In this document: positions 1,647-6,157 of the stretch, piece after piece
How positions within the stretch are numbered: the first letter of the stretch is position 1
How the letters are laid out: each line of letters opens with the position of its first letter
NCBI GenBank assembly: GCA_963833095.1
Contig: CAWHWQ010000004.1
Location: 206,702 to 270,701, forward strand
Length of the DNA: 64,000 bases
Source of the DNA: Vulcanimicrobiota bacterium
GTDB lineage: Bacteria; Vulcanimicrobiota; Vulcanimicrobiia; Vulcanimicrobiales; Vulcanimicrobiaceae
Reading direction: 5' to 3'
Notes under the pieces: generated by a model
Seen by the model: the letters and a program-made list of their open reading frames with translations, nothing else
Told to the model about the DNA's origin: nothing
The model's database searches: none
Program-made: the position numbers and the translations under genes

Positions 1647-2545
1647 TCGCTTCGTCGTCAGTGTTCCCGCCACCAGCGCCAATCTCGGGCCGGGCTTCGA
1701 TTGTGTCGGCATCGCGCTCGACCTGCGCGCCCGCGCGATGGTCGAACCCGCGAAACGGCTTCTCGCTCGAATTCAGCGGCCCGGAACAACCCACGCACAT
1801 CGGGTTCGAACGGATGATCATCGACGCGATGCACACGATCAGCAGCGAGCTGCCGCGCGTGCGCGTACACCTCAACAATGCGATTCCGCTGGGCAAGGGC
1901 GTGGGCTCCAGCGCCGCCGCAAGCGCGCTCGGCATCACCATCGCCGCGCGTGCCTACGGCCTCGAGCTCTCTCGTGACGACATCGCGGATCGCGTGTGCG
2001 CGCTCGAGGGCCATCCCGATAACGCGCTGCCCGCCGTCTACGGCGGCATCGTGATCGCCACCTCGGCACGCGCCAGCATCAAACTCCCCGCGCCGCGCGA
2101 TTTACACGCGATCGTCGTCGTGCCCGAGTTCGATCTTGCAACCGAAAAAGCGCGCGCACTGCTTCCGATCCAGTACGATCGCCGCGACGTCGTCTTCAAC
2201 ATTCAGCGCGCGGCGCTGCTCGGCGCCGCACTCGCCTCGGGCAACTGGAACCTGCTGCGCGAAGCGATGAACGACCGCTTCCACCAGCCCTATCGGGGCG
2301 AGGTCGTGCCCGGACTGGCCGACGCACTGCGCGTCGATTCACCCGAACTGATCGGCATCGCGCTCTCGGGCGCGGGGCCCAGCGTGCTAGCCATCGTCCG
2401 CGACCGTGCCGCGTGGCGCCCCATCGCCGCCCGCATCGCCGCTTGCTTCGAAGCCGCCGGCATCGCCGCCCGGAGCTACCGCCTGCCCTTCGCCGCGCGC
2501 GGCCTAGTTTCGCGCCGGCACTTGACGGAGCGCAAAGCGGCATGA
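1633..2545 (+). CDS. thrB: homoserine kinase, one apparent frameshift near 1757
   Basis: VPATSANLGPGFD in one frame; IPLGKGVGSSAAA, EGHPDN and LSGAGPS in the next. Confidence 0.92.
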
Positions 2546-2551
2546 TAGCCT
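2522..2551 (+). promoter_or_regulatory. promoter of the hom-met leader, inside the thrB 3' end
   Basis: TTGACG (2522-2527), 18 nt spacer, TGa-TAGCCT (2546-2551); leader ATG follows after 7 nt. Confidence 0.55.
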
Positions 2552-2558
2552 ACCCGAA

Positions 2559-2642
2559 ATGTTCGCGCCCACCATGATGACCTGTTCCATGTGCATTATT
2601 CAAATGAATAAGGCGGGGACTGTCATTGGGAGCACCGTGTAA
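2559..2642 (+). CDS. putative leader peptide MFAPTMMTCSMCIIQMNKAGTVIGSTV
   Basis: 27-aa ORF with 5 Met, 4 Thr, 3 Ile and 2 Cys upstream of hom-metY-metX, followed by a terminator. Confidence 0.75.
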   Translation: MFAPTMMTCSMCIIQMNKAGTVIGSTV

Positions 2643-2666
2643 AACACGGAATCGAGAAAGCACCAA

Positions 2667-2706
2667 AACGACGCCTCCGCCGATACGACGGGGGCGTCGT
2701 TCTTTT
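2667..2706 (+). terminator. attenuator terminator upstream of hom
   Basis: AACGACGCCTCCG...CGGGGGCGTCGTT-CTTTT; GGCGGGGAC at 2612-2620 can pair with its 5' arm as an antiterminator. Confidence 0.8.
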
Positions 2707-2731: not shown

Positions 2732-3856
2732 ATGGACTGTACGGTTGGAATCGGATTACTCGGATGCGGCACGGTCGGCGCGTCGGTCGCGCAGCGTCTG
2801 CTCTCCGAGCGCGACGCGATCGAGCGGCGCAGCGGCGTGCGCTACAAACTCCAGGCGATCGCCATCGCCAATCCGTTAAAAGCCCGCCCGGCCGAAATCG
2901 ATCCGGCGCTCTTCACGAAGAACGCGCGCGCCGTCATCGACGATCCGCGCGTCGATCTGATCGTCGAAGCGATCGGCGGCACCCACGACGCCTCCGAACT
3001 GCTCGAATACGCGCTCGAACGCGGCCGCACGGTCGTGACCGCCAACAAAGATCTCATCGCGACGCAAGGCCCGCGCCTCTTTGCCCTGGCCCATTCGCGC
3101 GGTGCGCGCTTGCGCTACGAAGCCGCCGCCTGCGGGGCGATTCCGGTGATCCGCGTGCTCGACGACGCGCTCGCCGGCGATTACGTTCACGCCTTCGGCG
3201 GCGTGGTCAACGGCACGTGCACCTACATTCTCTCGCAGATGGAACGCGGCGAAGAGTACGACGTCGCGCTGCGCCGCGCACAAGAACTGGGCTTTGCCGA
3301 AGTCGATCCGACCAGCGACGTCGAGGGCCTCGACGCCGCGCACAAACTCGCACTGCTCATGCAGCTCGCGTTTCAAATGGCGGTGATCTCGCCGCGCTTA
3401 CGCCGCAGCGGCATCAGCGGGGTGAGCAAACGCGACGTGGCCCGCGCGCAAATGCTCGGCTATCGCATTCGCCTGGTCGCCGCCGCCACACGCAACGGCA
3501 ACGTTGCCAGCGGCGAAGTCGCCCCGGTGCTCGTACCCGAAGCGCATCCGTTTGCGCAGGCCAGCGGACCCGAAAACGTCGTGCGCGTCGTCTCGCGCGA
3601 TGCGGGTGCGCTGCTGCTCTCCGGCACCGGCGCCGGCGGTTTTCCCACCGCGTCGGCGGTGCTCGGCGACGTGGTCACGGCGCTGCGCGACATCGCCAAT
3701 CAGCGCGCGGTGAATTACCCCGCGCTCAATCCCGCGCTCGATATCGCACCGCTGTTTGCGAACCTCGCGCGCCATCCCGAACTCCCACGCTATCCGGTGT
3801 GGGATGACTCGCTCCTCGAAGCTCCGGTCTCGCAGGTTGAAACTGCGTTCTCATGA
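2732..3856 (+). CDS. hom: homoserine dehydrogenase, no obvious C-terminal ACT domain
   Basis: GCGTVG Rossmann motif, VVTANK, YEAA.CGAIP, NGTCTYIL, DVEGLDAAHKL, GAGGFPTASAV. Confidence 0.95.
   Translation: MDCTVGIGLLGCGTVGASVAQRLLSERDAIERRSGVRYKLQAIAIANPLKARPAEIDPALFTKNARAVIDDPRVDLIVEAIGGTHDASELLEYALERGRTVVTANKDLIATQGPRLFALAHSRGARLRYEAAACGAIPVIRVLDDALAGDYVHAFGGVVNGTCTYILSQMERGEEYDVALRRAQELGFAEVDPTSDVEGLDAAHKLALLMQLAFQMAVISPRLRRSGISGVSKRDVARAQMLGYRIRLVAAATRNGNVASGEVAPVLVPEAHPFAQASGPENVVRVVSRDAGALLLSGTGAGGFPTASAVLGDVVTALRDIANQRAVNYPALNPALDIAPLFANLARHPELPRYPVWDDSLLEAPVSQVETAFS

Positions 3857-6157
<2,301 letters not shown>

Follow-up and report, generated by a model that had tools for sequence, protein, structure and literature searches.

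The window, a stretch of 64,000 nucleotides (nt) from contig CAWHWQ010000004.1 (positions 206,702 to 270,701), carries a candidate leader-peptide attenuator in front of the methionine biosynthesis genes hom, metY and metX. The host is an uncultured soil bacterium of Candidatus Eremiobacterota (Vulcanimicrobiota), a member of the Baltobacteraceae near Candidatus Aquilonibacter. Its assembly comprises 8 contigs with 2.8 Mb and is 80.7% complete. The gene order is thrC (510–1646), thrB (1643–2545), a 186-nt spacer, hom (2732–3856), and metY plus metX (3881–6130). The element starts within the 3′ end of thrB and extends through a short open reading frame (ORF) to an intrinsic terminator, with 25 nt between the U tract and the hom start. 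The features were assigned from the sequence, the ORF list, profile matches and folds, partly minimum free energy (MFE) folds and partly folds with the ribosome-covered part masked.

2522–2527, + strand: -35 hexamer TTGACG, read from the sequence, within the 3′ end of thrB.
2546–2551, + strand: -10 hexamer TAGCCT, read from the sequence, with an 18-nt spacer from the -35 hexamer; it adjoins the thrB stop codon at 2543–2545.
2559–2642, + strand: leader ORF MFAPTMMTCSMCIIQMNKAGTVIGSTV, 27 codons with ATG start, putatively leaderless (ORF list and sequence).
2574–2579, + strand: Met6-Met7 codons, predicted 5′ strand of the anti-antiterminator helix (helix columns 25–29 with 78–82; window fold).
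2583–2594, + strand: Cys9-Ser10-Met11-Cys12 codons, with the near-invariant alignment columns A31, T32, G33, G35 and C36, outside all helices.
2577–2594, + strand: region 1, predicted to pair with 2613–2630 when ribosome-free, as anti-antiterminator (MFE folds; helix 2).
2596–2611, + strand: inner hairpin UUAUUC-AAAU-GAAUAA, containing the Ile13, Ile14 and Met16 codons (window fold; helix 3).
2612–2624, + strand: region 2, putative antiterminator 5′ strand, GGCGGGG (2612–2618) and UGUC (2621–2624), predicted to pair with 2670–2681, the terminator 5′ arm (ribosome-masked folds).
2635–2649, + strand: small predicted hairpin with the stop codon UAA (2640–2642) at its loop (folds of the window sequence).
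2667–2706, + strand: intrinsic terminator, a G+C-rich hairpin (2667–2701) with the U tract TTCTTTT (2700–2706), from folds, terminator scan and covariation.
2732–3856, + strand: hom, homoserine dehydrogenase, 374 amino acids (aa), by Pfam and NCBIfam; the sole hom match in the assembly.
3881–5147, + strand: metY, O-acetylhomoserine sulfhydrylase, by an NCBIfam profile matching only positions 4–240 of 431, in the frame of 3881.
5144–6130, + strand: metX, homoserine O-acetyltransferase with GTG start, by NCBIfam MetX over residues 423–737 of a 749-aa open frame.

An earlier sequence-only reading had described a 27-residue ORF with 14 of 27 residues being Met, Thr, Ile or Cys, a promoter placing its ATG at about +1, a terminator with U tail and a competing arm. 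All of these are present in the sequence. In the peptide MFAPTMMTCSMCIIQMNKAGTVIGSTV, Met occurs five times (start included), Thr four times, Ile three times and Cys twice, and the ATG at 2559 follows the -10 hexamer after 7 nt. A generic promoter scan missed TTGACG/TAGCCT, since its -10 rule demands four of six matches to TATAAT. The pattern used instead, TTG at -35 and TAnnnT at -10, lists the window promoter; it misses the variants at loci L057 and L027, the Shine-Dalgarno (SD)-led leader L088, and weak U tracts. A genome-wide scan for Met-rich small ORFs yielded 17 matches. Only the window leader was convincing, and the others resemble out-of-frame coding sequence.

The element was followed through relatives. 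The gene hom was located in 41 relatives and 151 genomes of the class, and 102 hom loci from 85 genomes were read. A strict detector demanded TTG at -35, a spacer of 16–19 nt, TAnnnT, a distance of 4–10 nt to the start codon, and 8–60 codons in the ORF. The ORF is retained in hom orthologs: a leader stands at 50 of 68 loci with metY and/or metX behind hom, 48 of them found by the strict detector and two, L057 and the SD-led L088, by eye. Among 34 hom loci without met genes behind, a single Met-type leader was found (L009, same genus). The remaining 18 hom-met loci have no leader ORF; it is cleanly deleted in two (L050, L059), and a different 5′ region without Rfam match occurs in 16. The leaders represent 47 distinct peptides from 17 genera, for example MFTTTAMMCPMCCMQMHAAWAVVERTV, MSQNATSMMFSMGCMPMHAAGPS, MSMSMTSMFCMCCCMRAAGLLRT and MKRRRTCCTMMTGTRREFRSRCMREE, and ORF, promoter geometry and terminator are kept across these genera. 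TTGAC(N) with a spacer of 17–18 nt occurs in 49/49 detected leaders, the TTG being required by the detector and hence present by construction. The -10 hexamer lies 7 nt from the ATG at 47 of 49 loci, although the detector permitted 4–10 nt. The start ATG is invariant in 47/47 aligned leaders. An SD-like 4-mer precedes none of 47 leaders, versus 45 of 47 hom genes. Judged from these sequence features, a leaderless start with the ATG at about +1 is likely.

Another arrangement of hom-metY was observed in several genera (L067–L075, L018–L021). These loci have no leader ORF; another conserved 5′ region lies behind a strong promoter and matches no Rfam family, and the encoded Hom is N-terminally extended (..LTQPAHW..).

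The composition of the leaders is biased towards two amino acids. Internal Met accounts for 17.3% of the residues (199/1150), a 10.2-fold excess over an approximate background of 1.69% taken from six-frame ORFs of at least 400 aa of this genome; with one leader per genus, the excess is 9.4-fold. Cys reaches 7.9% against 0.9% (8.8-fold; 11.5-fold with one leader per genus). The corresponding values are 7.6% against 5.99% for Thr (1.3-fold; 1.5-fold) and 3.2% against 5.07% for Ile (0.6-fold; 0.5-fold). The sequence-only reading had named Met, Thr, Ile and Cys as sensed residues. Met and Cys are borne out across the 47 distinct leaders, Thr and Ile are not. The Ile13-Ile14 codons belong to a hairpin whose arms show covariation in other genera, where other codons form them, and the Thr positions vary within the genus. 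In the 12 leaders from the genus of the window, Thr and Ile each occur at about twice the background, at varying positions. A multivalent Met/Thr/Ile leader for this genus, whose only hom lies behind thrCB, was considered and rejected as unsupported; sensing of Thr or Ile there is unlikely.

Stand-alone hom paralogues without met genes were found at L026, L027 and L089, in three genera. They carry Ile/Thr-rich leaders (MTAHAAIMGISTITSS.., MSARCITSTIMCATSITWK.. and MSRWMIRSITIITGS..), which suggests two kinds of control, Met/Cys-type and Thr/Ile-type, for different hom copies in the family.

The Met codons follow the reading frame. Within the leader ORFs, 199 ATG triplets are in frame, 23 in +1 and 1 in +2; a set reduced to one leader per genus gives 66, 5 and 1. 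Alignment gaps in the 5′ half of the ORF are mostly three columns wide, with some blocks of five or eight. The Met11 codon (2589–2591), conserved to at least 90%, is the best-conserved internal codon and is unpaired in the structure model. The same Met/Cys bias is shared by leaders that could not be aligned (L024, the SD-led L088, L070/L076, L163, L172, L177). These properties bear on the idea of a new metabolite-binding riboswitch, e.g. for S-adenosylmethionine (SAM) or methionine, or of a protein-binding RNA, in which hairpins and GCGGCGGGG would form the aptamer and the ORF would be incidental. Such an RNA would account for the high nucleotide conservation in the hairpin and in GCGGCGGGG across genera and for the covariation of helices within the ORF. 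It would also fit the 3′ tail of the ORF, which is kept as RNA and not as peptide, the frame after GCGGCG shifting by one base among genera. Against an aptamer stand the frame preference of the ATG triplets, an invariant start ATG at a fixed 7 nt from the -10 hexamer, a best-conserved Met codon outside all pairings, and a bias that persists in unalignable leaders.

Known RNA families were not detected either. A permissive Rfam scan of 2300–2900 (E up to 10) gave no SAM riboswitch or T-box, the exclusion which the sequence-only reading had called for; the sole match, mir-934 at the terminator with E 1.4, is put down to chance. At gathering score, no Rfam family matched in the whole window or in 20 related loci. 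Thr_leader and the other leader families gave 0 matches at this score in the window, including the leader with 11 Thr at 351–428. The models SAM-I (RF00162) and SAM-IV (RF00634) were not found in the assembly; a search with SAM-II (RF00521) was uninformative, as control genomes stayed silent. Taken together with the sister elements described below, a riboswitch or protein-binding RNA is very improbable.

The structure covaries. The fold of 2556–2735 has an energy of -66.5 kcal/mol, with z = -4.7 relative to 200 shuffles. A covarying terminator with U tract stands behind all 47 aligned leaders; RNAalifold on these 47 sequences gave 11 terminator pairs, eight of them with compensatory changes, and 94.8% of the cells of this helix (helix 4) are paired. 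Helix 2, formed by regions 1 and 2 (1:2), is 78.3% paired and has 6 of 10 pairs changed on both sides. In the inner hairpin (helix 3), pairing reaches 87.6%, and both bases have changed in 5 of 9 pairs; the hairpin has U-A pairs here and G-C pairs in other genera. The structure tested for covariation was specified by the author and combined 1:2 helix, inner hairpin and terminator. In it, 84.9% of the cells are paired versus 34–53% in slid controls, and 21/32 pairs are changed on both sides; none of 500 shuffles scored as high. In the antiterminator columns, corresponding to 2612–2618 with 2675–2681, 85.3% of the cells are paired versus 43–66% in slid controls. The free nascent RNA of the window is predicted to fold into 1:2 (-34.6 kcal/mol), leaving the terminator 5′ arm open. 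With masking as by a ribosome at Met6/7 or Met11/Cys12, GGCGGGG..UGUC pairs with 2670–2681 (-29.8 and -27.0 kcal/mol). A masking test over all 47 leaders, which separates the states poorly and is not counted as support, has the terminator arm engaging the ORF region in every masked case.

The position of the element directly behind thrB in the genus of the window allows a simpler view, with the hairpin as the plain terminator of thrC-thrB and the ORF as a chance frame. Expression of hom-metY-metX would then depend on constitutive read-through or an unseen promoter. Contigs from RNA libraries are relevant here. Assembled contigs from 4 metatranscriptome runs (4 studies), which carry no 5′ or 3′ ends, strand or expression level, cover 2481–2820 with 0–4 differences. 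Three of these contigs span the terminator and reach hom, and contigs of X15 and X16 begin upstream of the ATG, at 2507 and 2481, respectively. This indicates that some of the RNA derives from thrB read-through, or that library DNA was carried over, and is not leaderless. Contig pile-ups at 370–403 and 1590–1628 were dismissed as low-complexity (ACC-run) matches to other organisms. A plain thrC-thrB terminator is hard to reconcile with the other genera, most of which have the leader before hom without thrB upstream; among the leader-carrying loci outside the genus, only L035 and L036 show a thrB match upstream of hom. The 25 nt from U tract to hom start leave no room for a promoter, and ORF, Met/Cys bias and own promoter are kept in 17 genera. 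The chance-frame explanation is hardly credible.

Sister leaders occur in the same genome. The 2.8-Mb assembly was scanned for a promoter, a start within 4–10 nt, an ORF of 8–50 codons and a terminator. Just 5 matches were obtained, and 4 of them, standing before amino-acid operons, are convincing. The Met leader was also built into a covariance model, R1, for a search of 151 genomes. R1 has a best E value of at most 4e-9 in 60 genomes, many of them its own training set. R1 alone found a second Met/Cys leader in this genome, which the promoter/ORF/terminator detector had missed. The sister leaders of this genome are the following.

312–487 of the window, + strand: thrC-thrB attenuator with TTGACC (312–317), 18 nt, TAAGGT (336–341), 9 nt, ORF 351–428 MISMFVSTTTTTTTTTTTVVRCRLT and terminator 458–487 (promoter and terminator scans).
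Genome G000, contig C5, 455610–455693, − strand (locus L031): leader MILASLLLVVLALISRSSPNRLGLTTA (MILASLLLVVLALIS..; Leu/Val/Ile) before ilvB-ilvC-ilvD, with a strong terminator (genome scan).
Genome G000, contig C5, 336657–336719, − strand (locus L032): Pro-rich leader MTYVHIPPCPPQPHQEMPVR (6 Pro of 20) before proC, with a strong terminator (genome scan).
Genome G000, contig C5, 569992–570133, strand not given (L158, 193–334): second Met/Cys leader MSNLHIMCHMCPVPAPDRRRLASRISK (MSNLHIMCHMC..), with the same promoter geometry and a terminator (found by R1).

The leader MISMFVSTTTTTTTTTTTVVRCRLT contains 11 consecutive Thr, and Thr-run leaders precede thrC at 5 of 15 family loci read. Behind MSNLHIMCHMCPVPAPDRRRLASRISK lie ssuA, ssuC and the gene of an ATP-binding cassette (ABC) ATPase (ssuB), together an aliphatic-sulfonate importer; this leader is conserved before ssuA in four genomes of the same genus (L159–L162). 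Twenty secondary R1 matches were read in relatives. Twelve are Met/Cys leaders, all before sulfur genes, namely 4 before ssuA, 1 before the gene of an NMT1/SsuA-like binding protein, 6 before genes of Cys/Met pyridoxal phosphate (PLP) enzymes and 1 before hom. Three matches from other genera of the family (L170, L171, L178) are putatively leaderless and Trp/Tyr/Phe-rich, e.g. MSRPYLLAWYFGCTALVSVELGNA and MLNVCAYAYWHGWGRLPDRRGWRLREE, and are followed by terminators. Their targets are aroA, encoding 5-enolpyruvylshikimate-3-phosphate (EPSP) synthase, or a pheA fusion gene of prephenate dehydratase and 3-deoxy-D-arabino-heptulosonate 7-phosphate (DAHP) synthase. One further match precedes a diaminopimelate (DAP)/ornithine decarboxylase gene. 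The remaining four (L165, L166, L168, L173), and likewise G000 C1 861567–861650, were rejected as the antisense strand of an ileS-like coding stretch (..PPYANG..H.GH..).

The composition of the leaders follows the pathway: Thr before thrCB, Leu/Val/Ile before ilvB, Pro before proC, Met/Cys before hom-metYX, ssuACB and Cys/Met-PLP genes, and Trp/Tyr/Phe before aroA and pheA. This correspondence is the hallmark of leader-peptide attenuation and is left unexplained by a ligand-binding RNA.

Control of hom-metY-metX by a trp-type, ribosome-mediated transcription attenuator reading charged Met-tRNA is accordingly the favoured reading of the sequence comparison, with a probability of roughly 0.85. 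The attenuator proposed in the sequence-only reading is thus supported by conservation, codon bias and terminator covariation. Cys-tRNA is probably read as well. Cys sensing is plausible because MetY fixes sulfide directly, its NCBIfam relatives being annotated as bifunctional O-acetylhomoserine/O-acetylserine sulfhydrylases, and because a sister leader controls sulfonate uptake. The comparison itself provides the ORF, its codon bias, the promoter geometry, the terminator and 1:2 helices with their covariation, and the link between composition and pathway. Where transcription begins, how the ribosome stalls and how the RNA switches are inferred, as follows. Transcription would begin on the A of the ATG (2559) or on a neighbouring nucleotide, and the leader would be translated as a leaderless mRNA. 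With ample Met-tRNA and Cys-tRNA, the ribosome would proceed to the stop codon at 2640. Region 1 (2577–2594, with the codons from Met6-Met7 to Cys9-Ser10-Met11-Cys12) would then pair with region 2 (2613–2630). The terminator 5′ arm would stay free, the hairpin 2667–2701 would form and transcription would end at 2700–2706. A shortage of charged Met-tRNA, and probably of charged Cys-tRNA, would make the ribosome stall on the Met/Cys codons and cover region 1. The freed GGCGGGG..UGUC (2612–2624) would pair with 2670–2681, no terminator would form, and the polymerase would continue into hom-metY-metX. In the genus of the window, read-through transcripts from thrC-thrB would meet the terminator 2667–2706, too.

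Two consequences of this build are conceivable. With the ORF at +1, ribosomes would enter at the 5′ end of the nascent RNA, and the Met-tRNA supply may be read twice, during initiation and at the internal Met codons. In many leaders whose terminator arm pairs with the ORF region in unmasked folds, GCGGCGGGG is followed by the stop codon after just 6 nt, and region 2 would lie under the terminating ribosome. Such leaders may be on by default when initiation fails.

The peptide itself could be the product, e.g. a Met/Cys-rich metal- or redox-active one, or control could be mainly translational or by Rho instead of the intrinsic terminator. Mycobacterial poly-Cys leaderless small ORFs (sORFs) do mask an SD without termination, according to the part of that study considered here (bioRxiv 10.1101/834739). 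Translation might be an additional level of control through the conserved CCUCGCUUUCCCAUC..AGGAGG that precedes hom in other genera. A functional peptide is at odds with its unconserved tail and the frame shifts between genera. As for a translational or Rho mechanism, the covarying terminator with U tract is present behind all aligned leaders, and the hom SD takes no part in the alternative pairings of the window. These alternatives appear very unlikely, and transcription attenuation through the terminator is preferred.

A conserved stretch, UCCUCGCUUUCCCAUC(N)CA(N)CAGGAGG, lies between terminator and hom start in other genera (L033–L079 and others) and is missing from the genus of the window. 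It was also seen before ssuA in this genome, and it persists where the leader is deleted (L050, L059). The CCUCGC repeats part of the terminator 5′ arm and is anti-SD-like; judged from the sequence, the stretch may influence how the first gene is translated.

Several observations weigh against the attenuator. Apart from the start codon, the window leader encodes Met just 4 times and Cys twice, with a single adjacent pair. In most genera, two Met codons (AUGC..GCAU) form the arms of the inner hairpin, so that the ATG excess may partly serve structure, and the amino-acid background behind the stated enrichments is approximate. The antiterminator pairing is near-invariant; covariation is therefore silent on it, neither for nor against. 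In 27 of 47 leaders, the terminator arm engages the ORF region without masking, too, and the masking test discriminates weakly (shuffles average 0.63 versus 0.79), as G-rich shuffles also pair with the C-rich arm. RNA-library contigs of X15 and X16, which cannot show 5′ ends, begin upstream of the ATG, so that part of the RNA or library DNA is not leaderless. The support is comparative, and the host is uncultured with an assembly of 80.7% completeness. Finally, metY of this strain appears interrupted. Relative to the closest genome, G002, the alignment shows a 2-nt deletion near 4607 (window 4600–4610), which is either an assembly error or the mark of a decaying gene or operon.

The C-terminal half of metY lies in the frame of ORF 4692–5147. 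A MetY-MetX fusion, suggested by the 749-aa open frame, was rejected as an artefact of the deletion; metX starts at about 5144. In genome G009, metY is likewise in two pieces.

In textbook systems, methionine genes are under SAM riboswitches, T-boxes or MetJ/MetR. The leader-peptide attenuators that have been characterised serve Trp, His, Leu, Thr, Ile/Val and Phe. In the classical enterobacterial attenuators, a stalled ribosome selects the antiterminator, and the leader ORFs have an SD. The element resembles trpL, thrL, hisL, leuL, ilvL and pheL of enterobacteria in its short ORF with regulatory codons, its predicted 1:2, 2:3 and 3:4 regions and its intrinsic terminator; the thrC-thrB leader of the window with 11 Thr codons parallels thrL. 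It differs in the probable leaderless start and in the specificity for Met and Cys, and no similarity in sequence or to the Rfam models was found. With SAM riboswitches and Met T-boxes, it shares the place in the 5′ leader of methionine genes and an output of termination or read-through. Those elements sense SAM or uncharged tRNA directly, and none of their models matches in the window or the 20 related loci.

Leaderless leader peptides have been predicted in Deinococcus deserti, the nearest published parallel. In the portion of that work covered here, differential RNA sequencing mapped the start to the A of the ATG for 13 predicted leader peptides (de Groot et al., 2014, PMC4007540). Table S9 therein includes a Met-rich leader of 15 residues for metG and a Cys leader for cysS; further ones precede ilvB, leuA, trpE, a DAHP synthase gene and asd, the targets being amino-acid biosynthesis or tRNA-ligase genes (PMC4007540). 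The leaders of D. deserti are comparable as short ORFs rich in the cognate residue, with predicted attenuation; their mapped start at the ATG is the counterpart of the putative leaderless start here. They belong to another phylum, Table S9 has none before hom, metY, metX or a sulfonate transporter, and in the portion covered they are predictions without analysis of alternative structures or conservation (PMC4007540). Owing to this precedent, neither the leaderless build nor a Met-codon leader as such is new. The remark in the sequence-only reading that no Met-codon attenuator has been characterised holds for experiments, and needs to be qualified by the predicted leader before metG (PMC4007540, Table S9).

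The mycobacterial poly-Cys sORFs, leaderless sensory sORFs that read the Cys-tRNA supply before sulfur-metabolism genes, parallel the putative leaderless start and the probable Cys-tRNA sensing in the window. As described in the part of the study considered, they have consecutive Cys codons at the 3′ end, mask an SD and lack an intrinsic terminator (bioRxiv 10.1101/834739). In the window, the Cys codons are separate (C9, C12), Met and Cys codons are interspersed, the terminator covaries and the hom SD is left unpaired by the alternatives. The metXZ element of beta-proteobacteria is described as an RNA element and not as a leader peptide in the portion covered of PMC4239095. The covered portions of surveys on Actinobacteria (PMC1262725), attenuators (PMC2965389), RNA regulons (PMC3766115) and Proteobacteria (PMC4239095) contain no methionine leader peptide before biosynthesis genes. 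Full-text literature searches gave no paper on a leader peptide controlling methionine biosynthesis. New here are the Met/Cys specificity, the putative control of methionine biosynthesis together with sulfonate uptake, and the candidate phylum; the principle itself is not.

A conserved Met/Cys-codon attenuator would extend the principle of ribosome stalling to the sulfur amino acids, although Met also initiates translation. The same design before the sulfonate importer suggests that stalling on Cys/Met codons is a general sulfur-starvation signal. Its compact parts (promoter, 27-codon ORF and terminator in about 185 nt) would be suited to probing the coupling of leaderless translation and transcription. 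The assignment of operons to amino acids gives a first regulatory map for a candidate phylum with hardly any cultured members. As a tentative extension, a network of leaderless leader-peptide attenuators for Thr, Leu/Val/Ile, Pro, aromatic amino acids and Met/Cys might run much of the amino-acid biosynthesis in Eremiobacterota. Its Met/Cys member might form a sulfur regulon that replaces SAM riboswitches and may include hom-metY-metX, separate metY and metB/C-like genes, and the sulfonate importer ssuACB.

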